From: Pseudonocardiaceae bacterium
Lineage (GTDB): Bacteria > Actinomycetota > Actinomycetes > Mycobacteriales > Pseudonocardiaceae
DNA: 64,000 nt
NCBI GenBank assembly: GCA_036268955.1
Contig: DATATE010000089.1
Coordinates: forward strand, 1 to 64,000
Reading direction: 5' to 3'
A program made the translations under genes and the position numbers. Shown here piece by piece: positions 7,086 to 64,000 of the stretch; within the stretch, counting starts at the first letter, position 1; each line of letters starts with the position of its first letter. The notes under the pieces were generated by a model. It searched no databases and was not told the DNA's origin. It worked only from the letters and a program-made list of their open reading frames with translations.

Positions 7086-8192
7086 TCAGCGGGCCAGCCA
7101 CTCCAGGGACTGGCCGTGCATCCCGGTCCTGGCCAACGCCCTCGCCTGCGGCTTGCCGTCGGTCCAGCGGACAAGGCCCAGCGTCGCGGTACCCGCCTCG
7201 GCCAACGCGAGGTCGGTCCGGCCCGGCAGCAGGGCGTGCAGGCAGGTCTCGTAGACCTCCTGGCTCAGCCACCACAGCGGCCTGCTGGCCGCGAGTTCGG
7301 CCAGTGCGGCGATGAACGCACCGCGCCGGCCTGCGTCGAGGTAGGGCAGGGCGTGCGAGGTGAGCACCACCAGCGGCAGCTCGGTCGGAATCCGGGCCGC
7401 AGCGGCGGCGAGGTCCTCGACGGCGTCCCCGGTGATCAGCTCGGGCGGGTCGGCGGCCTGCACGCGGGCCGCGGTGTTCAGCAGCCGGATGCGGTCCACC
7501 TGGTCGGCCCAGATGCAGGCCTCCAACCAGGCGAGCTGCTCCTCGTCGCCGAGGTCGACCGGCCGAGGGTCGAGGCCGAGCTTGGCGCCGATGGCGAGCT
7601 TGCGCGGCAGCGCCGGCTTCTTGGCACCCTCGGCGATGCCGAGCTGGCTGGTCAGCACGAGGGCGGCCTTCGCGGGGCCGGTGCTGACCTGCTCGCCGCC
7701 GGCCAGTTGGTAGCGGTAGCCGTAGCGGTCCACGCCCAGCAGCAGCCCGGCGCTGGTACCGACCTCCAACAGGCCGAGCGGACCGCCTGCCTGCTTGCCG
7801 ATCGCGACAAGGGCCGGGTACAGCAGGGCCGCCCTGCGCACCTCGTTGGTCTGGGTGGCCCTGGTGGCGATCAGCTCGCGCAGCCGCTCGGCGCGGTCGA
7901 GGACGAAGGCCCGGAAGGTCGGCCAGGTGCCGTCGTCGACGCCGCGGTCGCCGCCGACCGACGGGTAGTAGTACGCCAGCTCGGAGGTGGGTTCGGCGAT
8001 CACAAGGCGGTGCGTCGCGGCGAAGAACAGCGTCGCGCGGGCCTGCTCCGGTGCCGCCGCCGTCAACAGCGCGGCGACCTCGTCGTCGGCGCCCGCGGCT
8101 TGCGCGAGGTGCTCATACAGCGGTGACTCGCCGGCCGCCTCCTGCTTGGCGAAGGTCAGCAGCCGTTCACGCGCGAGGTCGACCCCGGTCAT
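7086..8192 (-). CDS. DUF2332-family protein (hypothetical)
   Basis: About 370-aa soluble protein starting at MTGVDLARERLLTFAKQEAAGESPLYEHLA. The long upstream extension of the ORF is Arg/Ser/Thr low-complexity and likely non-coding. Confidence 0.5.
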   Translation of the reverse strand: MTGVDLARERLLTFAKQEAAGESPLYEHLAQAAGADDEVAALLTAAAPEQARATLFFAATHRLVIAEPTSELAYYYPSVGGDRGVDDGTWPTFRAFVLDRAERLRELIATRATQTNEVRRAALLYPALVAIGKQAGGPLGLLEVGTSAGLLLGVDRYGYRYQLAGGEQVSTGPAKAALVLTSQLGIAEGAKKPALPRKLAIGAKLGLDPRPVDLGDEEQLAWLEACIWADQVDRIRLLNTAARVQAADPPELITGDAVEDLAAAAARIPTELPLVVLTSHALPYLDAGRRGAFIAALAELAASRPLWWLSQEVYETCLHALLPGRTDLALAEAGTATLGLVRWTDGKPQARALARTGMHGQSLEWLAR

Positions 8193-16199: not shown

Positions 16200-17381
16200 G
16201 CCGGTGGACGAGGTGCTGTCGCCGTTCGTCCCGTTGGTTCCGTTCGCCCCGTTGATCGCATTGATCCCGTTCACCGCCGTGGTCAACAGCGACTGAACCG
16301 GGTTCGGCTGCGGGATGGCCGCGCTCGGGTCCGCCGCGGTGACGTTCGGCTGAGCCGGTGCGGTGTTCGGCTGGGCCACCGCCGTGTTCGGCTGGGTCAC
16401 CGCGGTGTTCGGCTGGGCCACCGCCGTGTTCGGCTGGGTCACCGCGGTGTTCGGCTGGGTCACTGCCGTGTTCGGCTGGGTCACCGCCGTGTTCGGCTGG
16501 GTCACCGCCGTGTTCGGCTGGGTCACCGCCGTGTTCGGCTGGGTCACCGCCGTGTTCGGCTGGGTCACTGCCTGCTGCGCGGAGTTCCTCGGTGCCTGTT
16601 CGAGAAACCGCAGCAGCTCGACCGGGAACGGCAGCACCAACGTGGAATTCTTCTCGGCGGCGACCTCGACGACGGTCTCCAGCAACCGCAACTGCAACGC
16701 GGCGGGCGTATCCGCCATCTGCGCGGCAGCCTGGGAAAGCTTGTAGGAAGCCTGAAGTTCACCGTCCGCCGAGATGACCCGCGCCCGGCGTTCCCGCTCC
16801 GCTTCGGCCTGCCGGGACATGGAACGCTTCATGGTTTCCGGCAGCGCGACATCCTTGATCTCCACCCGATCGATGTGCACGCCCCATTCAAGAGCCGGCG
16901 AGTCGATCATCAGTTCGAGCCCCTGGTTGAGGCGTTCCCGGTTGGAGAGCAGATCATCCAGCTCACTCTTGCCGATGATCGACCGCAGCGAGGTCTGCGC
17001 GACCTGAGCGACCGCGAACCGGTAATCCTGAACCGTGACAACGGCGCGCGTCGGGTCGATCACGTTGAAATAGACCACCGCGTCCACCCGGACCGTCACG
17101 TTGTCCCTGGTAATACCTTCCTGCGCGGGCACCGGCATCGTGATGATCTGCATGTTGACCTTCCGCATCCGGTCGACGACCGGCACGATGCAGACCAGCC
17201 CAGGGCTGCGCGGCTCACTGACCACCCGCCCGAACCGGAAAACCAGACCCCGCTCGTACTGCTTGACCACCCGGACGCCGGACGCGACACACACGGCGCC
17301 AAAGGAGAACAGCCCGATCAACGCATCGATAAAAGGCATCATCGCCAGCTCCAGGATCGAAAACCCGGCCCCTGAGAACAT
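16119..17381 (-). CDS. SPFH/band-7 (stomatin/slipin-like) protein with a C-terminal heptapeptide-repeat tail
   Basis: An N-terminal TM helix plus an SPFH core (RVVKQYERGLVFRFGRV ... VDAVVYFNVIDP ... ALPETMKRSMSRQAEAERERRARV). The C-terminal tail consists of about 11 copies of TAVTQPN followed by an N/G/T-rich end. Confidence 0.75.
   Translation of the reverse strand: MFSGAGFSILELAMMPFIDALIGLFSFGAVCVASGVRVVKQYERGLVFRFGRVVSEPRSPGLVCIVPVVDRMRKVNMQIITMPVPAQEGITRDNVTVRVDAVVYFNVIDPTRAVVTVQDYRFAVAQVAQTSLRSIIGKSELDDLLSNRERLNQGLELMIDSPALEWGVHIDRVEIKDVALPETMKRSMSRQAEAERERRARVISADGELQASYKLSQAAAQMADTPAALQLRLLETVVEVAAEKNSTLVLPFPVELLRFLEQAPRNSAQQAVTQPNTAVTQPNTAVTQPNTAVTQPNTAVTQPNTAVTQPNTAVTQPNTAVAQPNTAVTQPNTAVAQPNTAPAQPNVTAADPSAAIPQPNPVQSLLTTAVNGINAINGANGTNGTNGDSTSSTGSDEGAEQVEHGREQQPHGQAGGEHAE
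16340..16565. repeat. 21-bp tandem repeat (about 11 copies) inside the SPFH gene 3' region
   Basis: The unit cggtgttcggctgggtcaccg(c/t) repeats head-to-tail with one or two substitutions. It is in-frame (21 = 7 codons). Confidence 0.9.
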
Positions 17382-45940: not shown

Positions 45941-46060
45941 CAGACCTTATCCGTCCTTGCCGTCCGGGCTTGTCCCGTCCTTGCCGTCGGTCCTCGTCCC
46001 GTCCTCGTCCCGTCCTTGTCCCGTCCTTGTCCCGTCCTTGTCCGTCGGCCGCGCGAGGTC
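45941..46060. repeat. Intergenic tandem repeat of an 11-12-bp unit (gtcccgtcctt/g)
   Basis: About 9 copies of (c)gtcc(c/t)gtcctt(g) between the LOG-NUDIX start and the AT-rich tract. Confidence 0.7.
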
Positions 46061-46129
46061 GATCCGCACGGATGGCCCGGAGGTCGCAGGCGGGTACCTC
46101 ACGCCGATTTCACGTTACCCGCACGGTCC

Positions 46130-46300
46130 GGAGAAACGTTTATTTAACAGTCATATTTTGTTTAAAAAATGTCAACTGTGAATATTCAACAATAGACATG
46201 ATCTGTTAACTGCGCATTTACGTATATTCACGACGCATTCGTTGATGATGTCGATTTTACTGGGTATAAAAAATTTACCCTGTCATCGACGGAAAGCGAC
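46130..46300. promoter_or_regulatory. Strongly AT-rich tract (atypical for this about 70% GC DNA) with inverted repeats, upstream of the phospholipase D gene
   Basis: tttatttaacagtcatattttgtttaaaaaatgtcaactgtgaatattcaacaatagacatgatctgttaactgcgcatttacgtatattcacg. Contains ttaacag/ctgttaa inverted repeats, a tataaaaaa stretch, and gtcaactg. Confidence 0.4.
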
Positions 46301-46307
46301 CACTCGA

Positions 46308-47315
46308 ATGAAAAAGCACCATTTACTTGTCGTGCCCGCCGTACTGAGCATGATCGTCGCAGGCGCCGCCGTCACCACCGCCGACGCCGCTCCCACCGCC
46401 CACCAGGCGCCGGCCGCGACGTACACCCTGATCACCGAGCCGGACCAGACCTACACCCCGGTGTACAACTTCATCGGCACGGCAACCAAGACCCTCGACA
46501 TGACCATGTACGAACTGGTCGACACCACCGCCGAGCAGGATCTCGTCGCCGCCGCCAAGAAAGGCGTGAAGGTCAGGGTCATTCTGGACCAGAACCTGGA
46601 GAAGTCCTCCAACACCACCGCCTACAACTACCTCAACGCGAACGGCGTTTCGACCGTGTGGGCCAAGGCGGGTCGCACCACCCACCAGAAGACGATCACC
46701 GTCGACGGCACCTCATCGATGATCATGACGGGCAACCTGACCTCACGGTACTACTCGACCACCAGGGACTTCGCGGTCATCGACACCAACTCGCTGGACG
46801 TGAACGCGATCGAGAAGGTGTTCAACGCCGACTACGCCGACACCGCGATCACCCCGACCGACGGCGACAACCTGGTCTGGAGCCCCACCGACTCGCAGAC
46901 CCAACTGGTGGCCCTGATCAACTCCGCCACCACCTCGCTGAACGTCGAGAACGAGGAGATGAGCGACACCGCGATCGTCAGCGCGCTGGAGAGCGCCGCG
47001 AAGAAGGGTGTTGACGTCCAGATCACCATGACCAACACCGACAACGACTACGCCTCCGAGTTCGACGCGCTGACCAGCGCGGGCGCGCACGTCGCCACCT
47101 ACACCGGCGAGACCCCGATCTACATCCACGCCAAGGCGATCGTCGCCGACGCCGGCAAGTCCGACGCAACGGTCTACGTCGGCTCGGAGAACTTCTCCAA
47201 CGCCTCACTGACCGAGAACCGCGAACTGGGCATCATCACCACCAACGCCACCCTGCTGTCCTCGGTGAACTCGACTCTCACCTCGGACTTCAACGGCGCC
47301 AGCCCCTGGTCGTAA
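46308..47315 (+). CDS. Secreted phospholipase D-family (two HKD motifs) protein
   Basis: Signal peptide MKKHHLLVVPAVLSMIVAGAAVTTADA. HKD motifs TTHQKTITVDG and IYIHAKAIVADAG. A Thr/Ser/Asn-rich composition unlike neighbouring proteins. Confidence 0.8.
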   Translation: MKKHHLLVVPAVLSMIVAGAAVTTADAAPTAHQAPAATYTLITEPDQTYTPVYNFIGTATKTLDMTMYELVDTTAEQDLVAAAKKGVKVRVILDQNLEKSSNTTAYNYLNANGVSTVWAKAGRTTHQKTITVDGTSSMIMTGNLTSRYYSTTRDFAVIDTNSLDVNAIEKVFNADYADTAITPTDGDNLVWSPTDSQTQLVALINSATTSLNVENEEMSDTAIVSALESAAKKGVDVQITMTNTDNDYASEFDALTSAGAHVATYTGETPIYIHAKAIVADAGKSDATVYVGSENFSNASLTENRELGIITTNATLLSSVNSTLTSDFNGASPWS

Positions 47316-47345
47316 CCAGCCAGGTAGCGGGCGGCGGGTTACCGC

Positions 47346-47382
47346 TCACGTCCGGCACGTGGCTCGGTCCGAGCCACGTGCC
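47346..47382 (+). terminator. Perfect 16-nt inverted repeat hairpin downstream of the PLD gene
   Basis: ccggcacgtggctcgg-t-ccgagccacgtgccgg. No U-tract, which is typical of actinobacterial terminators. Confidence 0.5.
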
Positions 47383-47423
47383 GGGTCATCCACACGAAAC
47401 TCACACACGGTTCGCATGCTGGA

Positions 47424-48282
47424 TTGGCGCGGGTGTGGTCGGATGGCCGGGACGGTGAGGAGCCGGCGACGAGGCTGCCTGCTGATCATGGTGACCGGGC
47501 GGGTCCTGCTCACGCGGAGGGAAGCACGACCCTGCCGACGGCGGCTGTTCCGTCGCCGGGTCGGTTGTTGGTGGTGGATGACGAGCCGTTCTTGCGGGAT
47601 GCGGTGGCGGCGTCGTTGCGGTTTCTTGGTTTTGAGGTGGTGACGGGTGGGACGGGTGCGGAGGCGTTGGGTGTGATTCGGGATCGGCCGGTGGATCTGG
47701 TGGTGTTGGATGTGATGTTGCCGGATATGGATGGGTTCGAGGTGGTGCGGCGGTGGCGGCGGGATGGTTGTCGGGTGCCGGTGATTTTTTTGACGGCGAG
47801 GGATACGGAGGCGGACGAGGGATACGGAGGCGGACAAGGTCACGGGGTTGACTATCGGTGGTGGTGACTATCTGACCAAGCCGTTTGGTTTGGAGGAGTT
47901 GGCGGCGCGTGTTCGGTCGGTGTTGCGTCGGGTGCGGCCGGTGGAGGGTGGGTCGGTGTTGGCGTTTGCTGATCTGGAGTTGGATCAGGACAGCTATGTG
48001 GTGCGGCGTGGTGGGCGGGTGCTGGATTTGTCGCCGACGGAGTTTCGGTTGTTGCGTTTTCTGTTGTTGAATCCGGGTCGGGTGTTGACTCGTGCGCAGT
48101 TGTTGGATCATGTGTGGGATTACGATTTTGGCGGGACGAGCACGGTGGTGTCGACGTATATCGCGTATCTGCGTCGGAAGCTGGTGCGGTTCGGGGTGGA
48201 TCTGATTCATACCCAGCGTGGTGTCGGCTACAGCCTGCGGTTGCCTCGCGACGATGACCGGGAAGCCGCTGATAAGTCGTGA
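47424..48282 (+). pseudogene. OmpR-family response regulator disrupted by a 19-bp perfect tandem duplication
   Basis: gagggatacggaggcggac is present twice in tandem (47798-47816 and 47817-47835). Removing one copy restores ...[26 protein letters not shown]..., a canonical OmpR receiver/linker. With both copies, the frame shifts into a stop (ORFs 47424..47867 and 47848..48282). Confidence 0.75.
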
Positions 48283-49437
48283 CCGTGCCGTCCGGCGGGT
48301 GCTGCGGCCGTTCCAGCGGCTGGTGCCCGGTCGGCTGCGCCTGCGTGAACGGGCAGGCGCAGGACGATGTGTCCTACGACGGGGACCCGTTGCGTTCGGT
48401 GGCCATCCGCGCGGCGAGCGGCACACTGGTGATCAGTACCAGCCTGGACGACGTCGACCAGACGGTAGGCCGGCTGTGGTTGATCGTGCTGATCGGCTCG
48501 GCCGCCGCTGTGCTGCTCATCGGGTTGGGCGTGTTCTGGTCACTACGGCGCGGGTTGCGGCCCATCGAGACCATGGCCGCGCAGGCCGACAGGATCACCG
48601 CGGGCGACCTCACCGACCGAGTCACCCCACAGGACCACGCAGCGAGGTCGGCCGGCTCGGTTCGGCGCTGAACGGAATGCTGACACGCATCGAAACATCC
48701 GTACACGAACGAGAGACCGGCCAGGAACTGATGCGCCGGTTCTTCGCCGACGCCAGCCACGAACTGCGCACCCCTTGGCCTCGCTACGCGCCAACGCCGA
48801 GCTGTACCAGCAGGGCGCCCTGCCCGAGCCGGCACAGGTGGACGAGGTGATGCGGCGCATCGCCCTGGAAGCACGGCGGATGAGCGGACTGGTGGACGAC
48901 ATGCTCCGGCTCGCCCGCCTCGACCAACACCGCGACCCGATCGACCTGACCGCACTCCTCGCCGGCTGCGTCGAACGGATCCAGGTCGCCGCACCCGACC
49001 ACGTATGGCACACCGCGATCACCACCGGAGTGGTCACCGTCGGCGACGCGGAGTTGCTGCGCCGGGCGGTGGACAACCTGCTGGTCAATGTGCTCGCCCA
49101 CACCCCGGCCGGGGCCATGGCCACGGTGACGCTGCGCGCGCACCGTGACATGATCCAGATCGAGGTCAGCGACACCGGCCCCGGCGTGCCGGCCGAGAGG
49201 CTGCCGCGCATCTTCGACCGGTTCTACCGCGCCGACACCAGCACCACGCGCCCCGGTTCCGGCCTCGGCCTGTCCATCGTCACCCAGATCATCACCGTCC
49301 ACAACGGAACCGTGACGGCCGAGCCCAACCCACCACACGGCCTACGGGTCCGACTCACCCTGCCGGTGACCGACCCACGCGGACTCACACAGAACTCGCA
49401 CAATTCTCCAGCGGCGGTCCGATCGAGGTCGGACTGA
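48279..49437 (+). pseudogene. Cognate sensor histidine kinase split over three frames by two 1-nt deletions
   Basis: Frame A (48279..48671) carries the TM/HAMP part. Frame B carries EVGRLGSALNGML ... FADASHELRTP. Frame C (48775..49437) carries LASLRANAE ... through the HATPase_c domain. The junctions are near 48643 (gcg-agg, one g missing) and near 48773 (cc-ttgg). Confidence 0.7.
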
Positions 49438-49903
49438 CCGCGATCGCCCTGACCTCAGTGGATCGCGCTGCTCATCGGCCGGCTCGGCCTGCCCAACTCG
49501 CGCAATGCCAGGTCGACGAGAACGCAATGCCAGGTCGACGGGAACGGCGACGACCGCCTCGCTGACCTACCGGCACGCGGTACTCGGTCTGCGGCACGCG
49601 AAGTGAACGGACGACACGCCGAAGAGGTTGCCGCAACCCCCTCCGCGCGTCGTCCCTTCGCGTAAGGGGGACCCCCGAAATTTAATTCTACCGGTTGTTG
49701 ATCTAGGTTTTGCGGCTTTGCCAGGGAGCCGATTCGCGTGTCGTCCGTACGCGCAGCCGGGCCGACCTCATACGCAGCCGCGTCGTCCCTGTGCGCAGCC
49801 AGGCCGCCCGGTCCCCCGAACCAGCTCGCCCCGGATCGGCGCGCCTGGACCAAGTGCCCGGATCAGGGGCCAGGATCAGCGCGCCCAGCTCAGTGGGCCA
49901 CGC

Positions 49904-50719
<816 letters not shown>

Positions 50720-50770
50720 GGCGCGAGTCTAGGCGCGCGCCGTGACGGCAACCCGCACGGCCTGGACAGC

Positions 50771-52816
50771 TCAGCCGGTGACACTGTCCGCGCCATATTC
50801 CAGGTGCCCGACGAAGCGACGCAGGAAGGTCGCCTCCCCGTCCACCGTCGCCGACACGTCGTACCAACCCTGGCCGGTGGCAACGACATCGAGGTCCTCG
50901 GTCAACGTCGCACCGGCCGCAACGCGCACCGTACCGGCCGCGCCGAGCTGGCCCTGGCCACGCAACCGGACCGTGGCGGGTGCCGAACCGCCGTTGCTGA
51001 TCGACAGCCGCAGGCGCGGATGGCTGGTACTGCCCACCACCGTCGCGGCGACCTCGACGCCGAGCCCGGCGCCGGTGCCGTTGAACACCCGCAGGAACCG
51101 GTTGGGGCCGTGCACCGCGATCTGGTAGCCGCCGCTGATCGGCAGGGCCACCGCCTCGCTGCCGCCCGCCGGCACGTGCTGCCGTACCGGTGCCGAACCG
51201 GTCGGGTACACCTGCAACTGCACGGCGGCAGCACCGGAGTTGGCCATCAGCACTGTCAGCGTGCCGGCGCTGACCTGCGCGTTGGCCACCGGCTGGTACG
51301 GGATCGGCCGGGCGGGCCGGTCACCCGGCTCCTGCTGTGGGTCGCGCTGCGCGCCCTCGGCGGGTGGGGTCGGCGTCGGCAGCTTCGACTGCGTGCTGTC
51401 CGCCTCCCGCTGCAACGCGGCGGTGTCCGGCAGCAGCGGAATGCCGGGGTTCCACGCGGAGAAGTCGAAGCAGCTGGTCAGGTCGCCGCAGATGGACCGG
51501 CGCCAGGCCGAGATGTTCGGCTCCCGCACCCCGGTCCACTGTTCGAGGAAGCGGATCACCGAGGTGTGGTCGAAGACCTGCGAGTTCACCCAACCACCCC
51601 GGCTCCACGGCGAGATCACCGTCATCGGCACCCGAGGCCCGAGGCCGATCGGCAGGCCGTCGACGTACTCGTCCTCGGTGCCGGCCGGCGCGGTGGGCGG
51701 CACGACGTGGTCGAAGAAGCCGTCGTTCTCATCGAAGTTGGCGAACACGACCGTGTTGTCCCACAGCTTCTCGTTGCCCCACAAGGCTTTCAGTACGGTG
51801 TTCACGTACACCGCGCCGTCGACCGGCCGCGCCGCCGGGTGCTCGCACCAGCGGTAGGGCGCCACGATCCAGGACACCTTCGGCAGGTTCCCGGCCTTGC
51901 AGGCGCCGATGAAGTCGGCGAGCACATGCTCGGGGTCCATGCCGAGGCCGGAGTCGGGCAGCCATTCCTTGATCACGTTGGCCCGCGCGGCCAGCTGCTG
52001 CTGCGCAGGGTCCGAGCTGGCCAGCGCGTCGTGGTAGGCCTTGAACAGCCACAGCGGGTTGTCGCCGTAGTCACCGACCCAACCGTCGGTGCCGTCGCCG
52101 ACCTCCTTGTTGGCGAAGATCTGCCAGGAGATCCCGGCATCCTGCAGCCGCTCGGGGTAGGTCGGCCAGGACAGCACGGGCAGGTAGTCCGCGGGGTTGT
52201 AGTTGATCGGGCCGCCGAAGCGGCCGGCCGCGTCGATCGTGCCGGTCCAGTGGTAGAGCCGGTTGGGCGTCGTCGGTCCCTGGATCGAACAGAAGTAGTG
52301 GTCGCAGATGGTGAACGCGCTCGACAGCGCCCGCTGGAACGGGATGTCGGCATCGGTGAAGTAGCCCATGGTCAGCTCGGACTTGTTCGGAATCCAGGCG
52401 TCGTAGGCGCCGTCGTCCCAGGCGTTGTGCGTCGGCTGCCAGCTGTGGTCGAGGTCACCGAGATCCTGACCGTCCACTTTGGTGGTGTCGACGTGGAAGG
52501 GCAGCAGGTAGCCGCCGTCGGTCCGCGTGGCGTCCGGCTGGTGGAAGACGCTTCTGCCGGTCGGCAGGTTGATCGCGGTCGTGTCACCGAAGCCGCGAAC
52601 CCCGCGCATCGAGCCGAAGTAGTGGTCGAAGGAGCGGTTCTCCTGCATCAGGATGACCACGTGCTCGACGTCATCCAGCTTGCCCCGCTTGCGCGGCTGG
52701 GTGAGGGCCTCGGCCATCCCGCTCGGCAACCCACTGAGCACACTGCCCGCCGCGGCCGCACCGGCGACACCACCGATGAACCGACGACGATTGAAACCCG
52801 AACCCGACTCGACCAT
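50771..52816 (-). CDS. Tat-exported phosphoesterase-family phospholipase C (non-haemolytic PLC/acid phosphatase family) with C-terminal DUF756-like repeats
   Basis: Twin-arginine signal MVESGSGFNRRRFIGGVAGAAAAGSVLSG. The phosphoesterase core VVILMQENRSFDHYFG. About 680 aa, with two C-terminal beta domains. Confidence 0.8.
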   Translation of the reverse strand: MVESGSGFNRRRFIGGVAGAAAAGSVLSGLPSGMAEALTQPRKRGKLDDVEHVVILMQENRSFDHYFGSMRGVRGFGDTTAINLPTGRSVFHQPDATRTDGGYLLPFHVDTTKVDGQDLGDLDHSWQPTHNAWDDGAYDAWIPNKSELTMGYFTDADIPFQRALSSAFTICDHYFCSIQGPTTPNRLYHWTGTIDAAGRFGGPINYNPADYLPVLSWPTYPERLQDAGISWQIFANKEVGDGTDGWVGDYGDNPLWLFKAYHDALASSDPAQQQLAARANVIKEWLPDSGLGMDPEHVLADFIGACKAGNLPKVSWIVAPYRWCEHPAARPVDGAVYVNTVLKALWGNEKLWDNTVVFANFDENDGFFDHVVPPTAPAGTEDEYVDGLPIGLGPRVPMTVISPWSRGGWVNSQVFDHTSVIRFLEQWTGVREPNISAWRRSICGDLTSCFDFSAWNPGIPLLPDTAALQREADSTQSKLPTPTPPAEGAQRDPQQEPGDRPARPIPYQPVANAQVSAGTLTVLMANSGAAAVQLQVYPTGSAPVRQHVPAGGSEAVALPISGGYQIAVHGPNRFLRVFNGTGAGLGVEVAATVVGSTSHPRLRLSISNGGSAPATVRLRGQGQLGAAGTVRVAAGATLTEDLDVVATGQGWYDVSATVDGEATFLRRFVGHLEYGADSVTG

Positions 52817-52958
52817 GTTGACTGGCCCCTTCCGCTGGACAACGCCGAGTGGAGCCAAACAGCAGAAGGCGAATGCCGCCACGCTTGACTGTTAACGTGA
52901 GGTAGCCATTACCAAGCGCGGATATGGCGTGAAGTTTCCCTGGTCTCCCCGCCCGCCC

Positions 52959-54074
52959 TCAGCCGCGCAGAAAGGCCTCGAACAACCGGGCATACCGGGT
53001 GATCTGCTCGGCGGGGACGTTCTCCTGCCTGGTGTGGGCAAGAGTCGGGTCGCCGGGACCGAAGTTCACCGCGGGCAGTCCGAGTGCGGCGAACCGGGAC
53101 ACATCCGTCCAACCGAGCTTCGCGACGGGCTTGGCACCGGTCGAGGCGATCAGCTGTTTGGCCAGCGGCGCGGAAAGTCCGGGCAGCGCGGCCGGCGCAC
53201 AGTCGCGCAGGGTCACCTCGAACCCGGCGAACACCTCACGCAGATGCGCCTGCGCCTGTTCGGGACTCCGGTCGGGCGCGAACCGGTGGTTGACGGCGAG
53301 CAGGCACTCGTCCGGCACCACGTTGCCGGCCACCCCGCCGCCGATCCGCACCGCCTGTAGGCCTTCCCGGTACGTGCAGCCGTCGATGTCCACACTGCGC
53401 GGTTGATACTCCTCCAGCCTGCGCAGCACCTCGCCCATCGCGTGGATCGCGTTGCGGCCCATCCAGGCACGTGCGGTGTGCGCCCGCTGCCCCTCGGTCC
53501 GTACCTCGACCCGCATGGTGCCCTGGCAACCCGCCTCGATGCCCACATTGGACGGTTCGCCGACGATGGCGAGGTCGCCGACCAGCCAGTCCGGCAGCTC
53601 CCGTTCGATCCGGCCGAGGCCGTTGCGGGCGGCCTCGATCTCCTCGCAGTCGTAGAAGACGAAGGTCAGGTCGTAGGCGGGCGTCGGCAGCGTCGCGGCA
53701 AGGTGCAGGGCGACCGCGTCGCCGCTCTTCATGTCCACCGTGCCGCAGCCGTGCAGCACGAGGTCCGCGCCGGAACCGGTCCTGCGGTGCGGCAGGTTGT
53801 CGTTGATCGGCACGGTGTCGAGGTGACCGGCGAAGATCACCCGCGCCGCCCGGCCGAGCCGGGTGCGGGCCAGCACCGTATTGCCGGACCGGGCCAGTTC
53901 CAACTGCGGCGCCTGCCGGCCGAGCGCCTCGGCCACCGCGTCGGCGAGGCCCTGCTCGTCACCGGACACGCTCGGGAAGTCCACCAGCGCGGCGGTGAGT
54001 TCGATCGGGTCGATGGTCAGATCCAGAAAACCGGTCACGATCGCCCACCGTACCGGGATCGCGACCGCCGACAT
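52959..54074 (-). CDS. dapE: Succinyl-diaminopimelate desuccinylase (M20 family)
   Basis: M20 metal-ligand motifs ([25 protein letters not shown]) and actinobacterial DapE length. Divergent from dapD, as in mycobacteria. Confidence 0.8.
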
Positions 54075-63319: not shown

Positions 63320-64000
63320 CAGCGTCCCTCCCTGGTCAGGTCCCCGGTGAGGTCTTGGGTGGGGTCTTCGGCGAGGTCTTGGGCGAGGTCTTGGGTGGGG
63401 TCTTCGGCACGGTCTTGGGCGAGGTCTTGGGTGGGGTCTTCGGCGCGGTCTTGGGCGAGGCCGCCGAAGAGGTCGGTCGCCGCGCCCGTTCCGTCGCCGC
63501 GCGCCAGTACGAAGTACTCGGTCGGCAGCAGCGGTGCCGCGATGTCATTGGACAGCGCGTAGGCGACCCGGTCCCCGGCCGAGAAGACGCTCACCTGGGT
63601 CGCGTGCGCGCGAAGCGCCCGCAGCTTGGCCGGCAGGTACCCGGCGACGTCCAGTTCGGTGCTGATCAGCTCGTCCGGCACGACGGCAAGCTCCGCCGGG
63701 TCCGGCAGCCGGAACGGCAGGTCCGGCCAGCCGGCCAGGATCCGCACCCCGGCCTCGACGGCGGTGCGCGACTGCACCGCGTAGAACACCCGCGCCACCT
63801 CGGGGGCCCGTTCTGCGGCGGCGACGGTGATCTGGTGCGCCCTGATGTGGTCCGGGTGGCCGTAGCCGCCGTTGGCGTCGTAGCTGACCAGCACCTGCGG
63901 CCGGAACTCGGCGATGATCTCGGTGAGCATCGTCACCTGTTCGTCGGGCGACCCCTTGACGAAGGCCCTCGGCCGGTCGTTGGCCGGGTCGCCGACCATG
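63319..64000 (-). CDS. mshB: LmbE/PIG-L-family deacetylase (MshB-like). It runs off the window end and has a C-terminal AQDRAEDPTQDL repeat tail
   Basis: VSYDANGGYGHPDHIRAHQITVAA ... RALRAHATQV are PIG-L motifs. The N-terminus lies beyond position 64000. The C-terminal tail is encoded by 36-bp tandem repeats. Confidence 0.65.
   Translation of the reverse strand, partial: MVGDPANDRPRAFVKGSPDEQVTMLTEIIAEFRPQVLVSYDANGGYGHPDHIRAHQITVAAAERAPEVARVFYAVQSRTAVEAGVRILAGWPDLPFRLPDPAELAVVPDELISTELDVAGYLPAKLRALRAHATQVSVFSAGDRVAYALSNDIAAPLLPTEYFVLARGDGTGAATDLFGGLAQDRAEDPTQDLAQDRAEDPTQDLAQDLAEDPTQDLTGDLTREGR
63340..63455. repeat. 36-bp tandem repeat (about 3 copies) within the 3' end of the mshB-like gene
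   Basis: gtcttgggtggggtcttcggcg(a/c/g)ggtcttgggcgag repeated on the plus strand. In-frame (36 = 12 codons). Confidence 0.85.

Follow-up and report, generated by a model that had tools for sequence, protein, structure and literature searches.

The question raised by this locus is why a two-component system should be at once broken and, in its regulator, rewritten in a single direction on a single strand. The locus lies in a 64,000-nt stretch of contig DATATE010000089.1 from an uncultured Pseudonocardiaceae bacterium (the window), in which the initial annotation described a pair consisting of an OmpR-type response regulator (RR) and a histidine kinase (HK), inactivated by a 19-bp tandem duplication and two single-base deletions. 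That description did not extend to the insertion that carries the pair, to the further lesions, to the loss of a third gene or to the G/T recoding of the regulator. Taken as a whole, the locus is probably best explained as a dead, inserted copy of an operon that contains a tract possibly shaped by strand-specific mutagenesis.

Results

The regulator contains a recoded tract

The window was compared with contigs carrying intact orthologous operons, in which the RR and HK genes are followed by a PMT_2-family gene (L086, L087 and L088), with Amycolatopsis saalfeldensis (L001), with two syntenic Pseudonocardiaceae contigs (L091 and L092), and with two 8-kb metagenome contigs carrying RR-HK genes of a sister subfamily (L084 and L085). 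The contig of the window corresponds to Ga0376688_0000211 of JGI metagenome 3300036818. All operon-derived features described below are on the plus strand.

The most unusual feature of the regulator is a G/T-recoded tract of ~645 nt (47560-48205), composed of G 0.44, T 0.29, C 0.16 and A 0.11, in which the third codon positions are G 0.62, T 0.28, C 0.10 and A 0.00. Its GC skew (+0.44 to +0.57) and AT skew (-0.3 to -0.6) are unique in the 64-kb window, where the standard deviation of the skew is 0.089. The fraction of C at third codon positions (C3) is 0.10 in the tract; eight neighbour genes, the kinase next to it among them, have 0.43-0.58, and the closest orthologs have 0.44-0.49. The G-over-C skew at the same positions (GC3 skew) is +0.72, as against -0.35 to 0.00 in 38 homologous regulators. 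The third-position bias of the tract is the extreme value within 1.42 Mb of related DNA. Both edges are sharp, falling within about 20-40 nt in composition windows and on the codon map: the quantity (G+T)-(A+C) rises from 0.00 in 47520-47559 to 0.50 in 47560-47599 on the left, and drops from 0.40 in 48160-48199 to 0.05 in 48200-48239 on the right. The mean G4Hunter score is 0.67 in the tract versus 0.05-0.10, which predicts that the tract is strongly prone to form G-quadruplexes and R-loops. An overlapping antisense gene was considered as a source of the bias and rejected, the 341-aa antisense open reading frame (ORF) being the trivial outcome of a C/A-rich strand without stop codons.

The substitutions that created this composition run in one direction. 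At tract sites where most orthologs agree there are 117 window-specific changes (C>T 70, C>G 30, A>G 11, A>T 2, T>G 3 and G>T 1), and at those sites G>A, G>C, T>C and T>A are all zero. Counted against four orthologs, 106 changes go from A/C to G/T and none goes the other way; each ortholog has 5-19 unique changes, with balanced directions. The changes are also strongly filtered by the genetic code. C>T is found at 69/123 synonymous versus 8/84 non-synonymous sites, and C>G at 26/50 versus 6/157, so that conversion reaches 0.52-0.56 at synonymous sites, which are nearly saturated, and is ~10-fold rarer (0.04-0.10) at non-synonymous ones. At two-fold third positions, non-synonymous C>G occurred once in 47 opportunities. 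Four-fold sites were converted to 22 G and 13 T, two-fold sites to 31 T and no G. Codon degeneracy confounds any preference of the changes for particular sequence contexts. GTC became GTG but TTC became TTT, and sequence context alone is therefore insufficient as an explanation. A code-respecting pattern of this kind means that most of the recoding happened while purifying selection still acted on the protein, and hence before the death of the gene. The window RR nevertheless has 17 unique amino-acid changes versus 4-12 in its orthologs, all of them A/C to G/T at the DNA level; the altered invariant positions include L66W, D96G (in the GGDDY motif) and F45V, L66 and D96 being invariant in 20/20 homologs.

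Several candidate origins were tried against this spectrum and rejected. A one-shot deamination of a dead or single-stranded fragment does not accommodate an outcome that depends on codon degeneracy (GTC to GTG, TTC to TTT) and in which synonymous changes far outnumber non-synonymous ones. Two-colour sequencing chemistry and bisulfite-like or ancient-DNA artefacts were set aside on the grounds that the changes respect the code and that CGG and CCG codons are kept, while an assembly chimera is unlikely, as the recoded and normal alleles lack long shared exact k-mers at the edges. More generally, since the changes are codon-aware, technical artefacts and chimeras cannot produce them. Resection of a double-strand break, which would leave mirror-image clusters, was rejected as well: the kinase does show a mild opposite bias (G>A 35, G>C 18), but this excess is regional and common to the neighbouring PLD, LOG and phospholipase C (PLC) genes in either orientation.

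In a separate comparison of 46171-54000 with L091 and L092, the plus strand gains changes from G/T to A/C in PLD, HK, LOG and PLC, whatever the orientation of the gene; on the PLC coding strand, C>G outnumbers G>C by 78 to 29. The asymmetry is regional, dominated by C>G and probably linked to replication.

Milder recoding occurs in intact genes of a second lineage

A search of metagenome contigs for the G/T-type coding pattern of the motif LLDHVWDYDFG found it only in L084 and L085, in both cases in an intact RR-HK pair (L084 630-2932; L085 4167-6451) with milder G/T-recoded segments. C3 of the regulator is 0.38 in L084 and 0.25 in L085. In the two kinases, C3 drops to 0.05-0.12 over residues 241-330 and is normal in the variable sensor region; the recoded kinase segments correspond to the part running from the second transmembrane segment (TM2) through HAMP and DHp to CA, to the exclusion of the sensor domain. 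Relative to a 20-homolog consensus, directional and reverse changes number 50:8 in L084, 70:5 in L085 and 135:2 in the window, versus 22-50:9-23 in controls. The evidence base is one contig plus two partial replicates, and the pattern in L084 and L085 implies that the process acts on functional genes and recurs.

The two contigs also permit a comparison of intermediate stages. Over the first 360 nt of the RR gene, L085 differs from L084 by 42 changes in the G/T direction, 5 in the reverse direction and 8 others, L085 being the more advanced of the two over this stretch. The non-directional divergence there is 3.6%, equal to background. Judged from these alignments, the difference within the pair looks like change in situ rather than import.

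L085 additionally carries, at 7294-8075 downstream of the first kinase, a partial second copy of the module in which 24 codons from the start of the regulator (83% identical) run straight into a kinase N terminus (68% identical). The RR-HK module appears prone to duplication and rearrangement.

Lesions of the operon copy

Lesions were called from MAFFT alignments with three intact orthologs, protein alignments with four, and blastn and tblastn searches. Measured against four orthologous operons that are intact, the copy carries eight or more independent lesions, which bears out the initial proposal of genuine pseudogenisation on a broader base than the three lesions on which it was founded.

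The regulator pseudogene spans 47463-48282 in its ancestral frame. As initially described, the 19-mer GAGGGATACGGAGGCGGAC occurs twice in perfect tandem, at 47798-47816 and 47817-47835 (TRF, period 19, zero mismatches), and the second copy shifts the reading frame; a perfect 19-nt tandem copy would be expected by chance ~2e-7 times in 64 kb. Comparison with the orthologous loci, which had been suggested as a check, shows a single copy of the 19-mer at the equivalent place in the four intact orthologs. Both copies carry recoded bases, from which it follows that the duplication is later than the recoding. Removing one copy restores full Response_reg and Trans_reg_C domains (PF00072, 1.9e-26; PF00486, 4e-24; Pfam on the repaired translation), that is, the two-domain architecture of OmpR/PhoB regulators, and with them the receiver residues VVDDEP, LVVLDVMLPD, IFLTA and TKPF. 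What it does not restore is the canonical sequence that had been claimed, the repaired protein reading GGGDY where 20/20 homologs have GGDDY. The repaired RR is 84-86% identical to many intact RRs (P0001-P0006 among them) from Pseudonocardiaceae-like metagenome contigs and Amycolatopsis; as it stands, the gene lacks an uninterrupted ORF, a start codon and the full set of invariant residues. No equivalog name applies, the best NCBIfam matches all being below cut-offs (PhoB, CreB and CseB for the RR, a CopS-like family for the HK, and mannosyltransferase MT1671 for PMT_2).

The start codon of the regulator was lost with a 12-nt deletion at 47462/47463 (CGGACGATGGAA in the orthologs; MAFFT against L086-L088): where the orthologs read AGGAGCGGACG-ATG-GAA-CCG, the window reads GAGGAG|CCG. 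The N-terminal extension that follows (47463-47559) is poorly conserved as protein; at the DNA level it holds a conserved string, CTGCCTKCTGATCATG, and T-ending codons even in normally coded orthologs. In another homologous locus, L089, the upstream ATG is ATT and the start lies 12 codons before the receiver domain, which implies that the extension is dispensable.

The kinase pseudogene (48272-49437), whose DNA is 81.8% identical to the HK gene of L086, retains TM2, HAMP, HisKA and HATPase_c (PF00672, 7.8e-13; PF00512, 3.8e-17; PF02518, 1.9e-28; Pfam on the stitched translation). Its start codon is ATA (48272-48274) where all orthologs have ATG, in a GATGAG overlapping the end of the RR gene. 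A frame-shifting deletion of ~400 nt (~414 nt relative to L086; junction 48343/48344) has removed the first transmembrane segment (TM1) and the extracytoplasmic sensor domain, leaving neither a pair of transmembrane segments around a sensor nor a continuous ORF with a start codon. The remainder can be read only by switching frame twice, as had been noticed: three frames are used, and the stitched product is domain-complete for HAMP, HisKA and HATPase_c. Ortholog alignment places the second -1 frameshift at 48774/48775, close to the 48773 originally given, three codons past the phospho-accepting His and within the H-box SHELRTP|LASL (ACCCCGCTGG > ACCCCTTGG). The first -1 frameshift had been put near 48643 and has to be moved by ~8 nt, to 48634-48638 at the end of HAMP, where GGACCCGCGC > GGACCACGC combines a base loss with a substitution. 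A 12-nt in-frame deletion in the DHp-CA linker (48930/48931; alignment) may have been tolerated.

The third gene is the most damaged. A deletion of ~1066 nt (junction 49418/49419) has removed the kinase stop codon, the intergenic region and approximately the first 327 codons of the PMT_2 gene, which encodes a GT-C type glycosyl/mannosyltransferase; in blastn, 49380-49418 corresponds to L086 10341-10379 and 49419-49518 to L086 11445-11553. What persists of PMT_2 is an out-of-frame remnant of ~270 nt (49419-49690; tblastn with three orthologous proteins) in which residues ~328-409 alone are detectable. Its 3' part is also gone, and a 22-nt tandem duplication (49501-49544, two copies, 95% identical), found by repeat search and seen as an insertion relative to PMT_2 proteins, lies inside it.

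On this sequence evidence, the operon copy is dead, with both start codons lost, the RR frameshifted and HK and PMT_2 broken. The RR and HK of the window, with their ORFs broken, are accordingly not functional members of their families.

The operon copy is a lineage-specific insertion

The decayed RR-HK-PMT_2 operon copy, a piece of a three-gene module of envelope type, is an inserted fragment of 2.5 kb (47385-49903). In three syntenic contigs, where PLD is 84-87% identical, only 52-58 nt separate the PLD stop from the stop of the LOG gene, with a terminator hairpin in between, and the blastn alignment with L091 and L092 ends at window position 47315 and restarts at 49904. The short spacer and this gap together imply that 47385-49903 is a lineage-specific insertion carrying the two-component system. 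The native bidirectional terminator hairpin of the PLD/LOG spacer is still present at 47352-47384 (16-nt perfect arms, 1-nt loop; inverted-repeat search) and has equivalents in the spacers of L091 and L092. Operon-derived sequence begins right after its right arm, at CGTGCCGGG, which is also present in the upstream region of the L086 operon; the insertion point is thus a 9-nt microhomology just past the hairpin. Collinear blastn matches, interrupted by the two internal deletions, link the insert to the L086 operon.

Remnants of RR, HK and PMT_2 follow one another in the insert in the same order as in L086-L088. In 5/5 sufficiently long homologous loci, the RR gene is followed by a gene for a 503-561-aa kinase and then by one for a PMT_2-family glycosyltransferase; the sixth locus, L089, is a 2.7-kb contig with the regulator and a 490-aa kinase. 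The upstream region of the operon (47389-47462), ~90% identical to those of L086 and L088, has kept an operator-like motif, ACTCACACACGGTTCGCA (47399-47416), and a GAGGAG Shine-Dalgarno sequence. The motif ACTCACACA-N3-4-TCGCA is seen upstream of the regulator in the window, L086, L087, L088, L089, L001 and L002. Immediately before PMT_2, a related copy (49383-49400 in the window, with counterparts at the equivalent places in these loci) forms part of the final ~50 nt of the kinase gene and codes for its conserved tail, LTQDSHDS. The regulator probably uses the motif as its operator at the promoters of both the operon and PMT_2.

The surroundings of the insert differ in part from the initial description, which placed the pair between two secreted phospholipase genes and next to an AT-rich tract. 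The PLD-type gene (46308-47315), whose nearest homologs are labelled Pseudonocardiaceae, is indeed the immediate upstream neighbour. On the other side, the kinase and the phospholipase C gene (50771-52816) are not adjacent, as a LOG-family gene (49904-50719, minus strand) lies between them, and the AT-rich stretch (46100-46300, GC 0.39) lies upstream of PLD, in the LOG/NUDIX-PLD intergenic region. The same intergenic region contains an 11-nt repeat, CTTGTCCCGTC, in ~6.6 copies (45951-46043). Degenerate 14-nt repeats (TCAGTGGGCCAAGC, 3.7 copies, 49863-49913) at the right insertion junction match the 3' end of the LOG gene; counted together with the duplications of 19 and 22 nt, they make short tandem duplications unusually frequent in the insert. 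Elsewhere in the window there are a tandem array of ten 21-nt units (GTGTTCGGCTGGGTCACCGCC, 94% matches) at 16363-16572 and a 36-nt unit repeated 3.1 times (96% matches, 12-nt sub-period) at 63349-63460. An Rfam search over 46000-50200 gave no match.

Discussion

The first issue is whether the lesions are real and permanent. That they are sequencing or assembly artefacts hiding an operon that is intact in the cell is very improbable, although the whole sequence comes from one metagenome contig, which tells against our own reading too, and one of the 1-nt losses adjoins a short C run. Deletions of ~400 and ~1066 nt are not base-calling errors, and together with two lost start codons and two tandem duplications they are the error type of no platform; the second -1 is not in a homopolymer, and the flanking genes, over ~20 kb of the contig, are undamaged, free of frameshifts and of lengths that match those in relatives. 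The 220-aa kinase ORF that the second frameshift creates has an identical annotated counterpart on an 82,331-nt contig from another assembly, an NCBI third-party metagenome-assembled genome (the contig that carries HEX3780483.1), but that assembly may use the same reads, and the agreement covers the kinase fragment only. Even harder to credit is phase variation, with the 19-nt duplication reversibly switching a regulator that is still of use. Slippage can remove a tandem duplication exactly, and apart from the duplication the regulator ORF is open. However, the repeat is limited to two copies and does not form an array, the relatives have no repeat at this place, the partner kinase and the target gene are irreversibly destroyed, the ancestral start is deleted, and invariant residues are replaced (D96G, L66W). 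The pseudogenised two-component system is, in short, an ordinary decaying acquired fragment of a known module type.

The recoded tract is another matter, because no known process fully explains it; its mechanism is one that we infer. Any account must cover the restriction to one strand, changes from amino to keto bases only, sharp edges around a conserved core, filtering by the code, biased amino-acid replacements, and recurrence. We lean, tentatively and with somewhat less than even confidence, towards strand-specific mutagenesis in situ that was confined to the tract and filtered by selection on the protein. In one candidate form, the coding strand would have been repeatedly exposed as single-stranded DNA and subjected to deamination and abasic-site bypass; alternatively, the minus strand would have been repeatedly resynthesised with low fidelity on the plus-strand template. 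In such a scheme, only errors giving A-C, C-C or A-A mispairs would persist, while those giving G-T, G-G or T-T mispairs would be corrected. The actinobacterial mismatch endonuclease NucS/EndoMS prefers G-T, G-G and T-T mispairs and acts weakly on A-C (PMC8228993), the sole documented case; that C-C and A-A also belong among its weak or unrecognised substrates is an assumption. The final frameshifts and deletions would be recent and neutral.

Several observations weigh against this proposal. A process linked to transcription should also hit the 5' untranslated region (UTR), the loosely constrained N-terminal extension (C 0.28-0.38) and the kinase transcribed with it, none of which is recoded, and the regional substitution trend on this strand runs opposite to the tract. 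Simple deamination dominated by C>T does not by itself give an excess of G over T at four-fold sites. The 17 unique amino-acid changes, some at invariant positions, indicate that constraint was incomplete. Moreover, the tract coincides with the conserved core that is capable of homologous pairing, and the recoded segments of L084 and L085 are likewise conserved, which fits recombination at least equally well. The tract could accordingly be a mosaic patch, in which recombination or gene conversion swapped the conserved core of the RR for a G/T-rich allele from another copy or organism, the locus itself not being unusual; we regard this as unlikely, but as the most serious alternative. It would explain both sharp edges, the match of the tract to the core able to pair with homologs (leaving the N-terminal extension, the C-terminal tail, the kinase sensor and the UTR untouched), the confinement of recoding in L084 and L085 to the conserved RR and HAMP-to-CA segments, and the opposition to the regional strand trend. 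It also suits the count of background changes from G/T to A/C in the tract, which is 0 versus ~8-16 expected and points to a history unlike that of the kinase. On the other hand, no donor was found: out of 5.8 billion sequences, the best match at the protein level has 86% identity and normal coding, searches of viral contigs with two G/T-type patterns returned nothing, blastn against plasmids and phages gave weak or no matches, and the 64-kb window holds no second copy or paralog of the tract. The non-directional divergence between L085 and L084 is no higher inside the recoded stretch than outside it, and the origin of a functional G/T-rich allele is merely moved elsewhere. Selection for the nucleotide sequence itself is a more doubtful option still. 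Adaptive recoding could have favoured codons ending in G or T (ACG, GAT, TAT, CAT, TTG and others) or a C-poor, weakly folded mRNA, and, with the same low probability, translation of the regulator would hinge on a stress-specific tRNA state, as for mycobacterial dosR. The left edge of the tract coincides with the first codon of the conserved domain, which is the start chosen by the JGI gene caller (47565), the predicted mRNA folding is 30% weaker (-0.36 versus -0.51 kcal/mol per nt), and NAC>NAT is the most advanced class of change in the intermediate genes of L084 and L085. In addition, the pairs ACG/ACC, GAT/GAC, TAT/TAC, CAT/CAC, AAT/AAC and TGT/TGC match the hypoxia pattern of Mycobacterium bovis BCG, in which they separate hypoxia-regulated proteins including DosR (PMC5114619). 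Codon choice, however, does not predict the direction of the 17-20 amino-acid replacements, every one of which is a change from A/C to G/T, and never the reverse, at codon positions 1-2; recoding stops short of the last 25 codons, the magnitude is far beyond any described codon bias, and the gene is now dead.

We entertain, as a speculation with rather low odds, that Actinobacteria possess a tract-limited, strand-specific hypermutation whose spectrum (C>T, C>G, A>G and A>T only) would consist of what NucS/EndoMS mismatch repair overlooks. Such a process might depend on homologous pairing or on the resynthesis of one strand, and could recode gene-sized segments of functional genes from paralog-rich families such as two-component systems, the RR of the window being its most extreme product.

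It is therefore the recoded tract rather than the pseudogene that deserves attention, with directional substitutions of 106:0 that respect the code and recur, in milder form, in intact genes. If the cause is mutational, there would be a local mode of hypermutation in bacteria without MutS/MutL, with a bearing on the speed at which paralogous regulators diverge and escape from recombining with each other; if it is selective, this would be the strongest natural case of recoding of a regulator at the nucleotide level. Either way, the spectrum, the edges and the intermediate alleles are concrete test material. The pseudogene has its own uses, as an example of the decay of an acquired regulatory module and as a caution that gene callers will split the dead operon into four spurious ORFs.

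Comparison with known systems

Non-functional DNA that has been acquired usually accumulates frameshifts, small duplications and internal deletions. The insert behaves like other bacterial pseudogenes in this respect, being disrupted where its orthologs are intact and having entered an intergenic site at a microhomology, at a syntenic position that is empty in relatives. It differs from them in its one-directional, codon-aware recoding, which neutral decay does not make. With the RR-HK-PMT_2 modules of Pseudonocardiaceae and Streptosporangiales, such as that of A. saalfeldensis, it shares the gene order, the upstream motif and the second motif at the 3' end of the kinase, but in all of the orthologs the genes are unbroken and the coding is normal (C3 0.44-0.49).

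Kataegis, AID-type somatic hypermutation and fungal repeat-induced point mutation produce clustered, strand-coordinated C>T and C>G changes over ~1 kb, the last of these being limited to a homologous segment. The tract is similarly clustered and coordinated, with 70 C>T and 30 C>G changes on one strand and none on the other. Those processes are indifferent to coding, however, whereas the tract is filtered ~10-fold by synonymy, and neither a deaminase nor a duplicate copy was identified here. A diversity-generating retroelement was likewise considered and rejected, given that the 64-kb window has no second copy of the tract and that the changes are mainly at C, not A.

Strand asymmetries are known from the deamination of C on an exposed strand, from G+T-rich leading or non-transcribed strands and from the heavy strand of vertebrate mitochondria. 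The tract resembles them in its C>T and A>G changes and in the excess of G and T on one strand, but known bacterial skews are weak and extend over genomes or replichores, unlike a sharp-edged tract of 645 nt that opposes the local trend; the general concept, asymmetry arising from replication and transcription, is that of PMC2031905. The codon bias of mycobacterial dosR offers an actinobacterial response regulator that is also rich in ACG and NAT-type codons, although that bias is modest and confined to codon choice, being neither strand-wide nor accompanied by amino-acid replacements (PMC5114619). No description of a comparable recoded tract was found in the literature searched. The tract thus resembles known strand asymmetries and deaminase clusters in direction and spectrum, but its scale, its sharp edges and its respect for codons set it apart from all of them.

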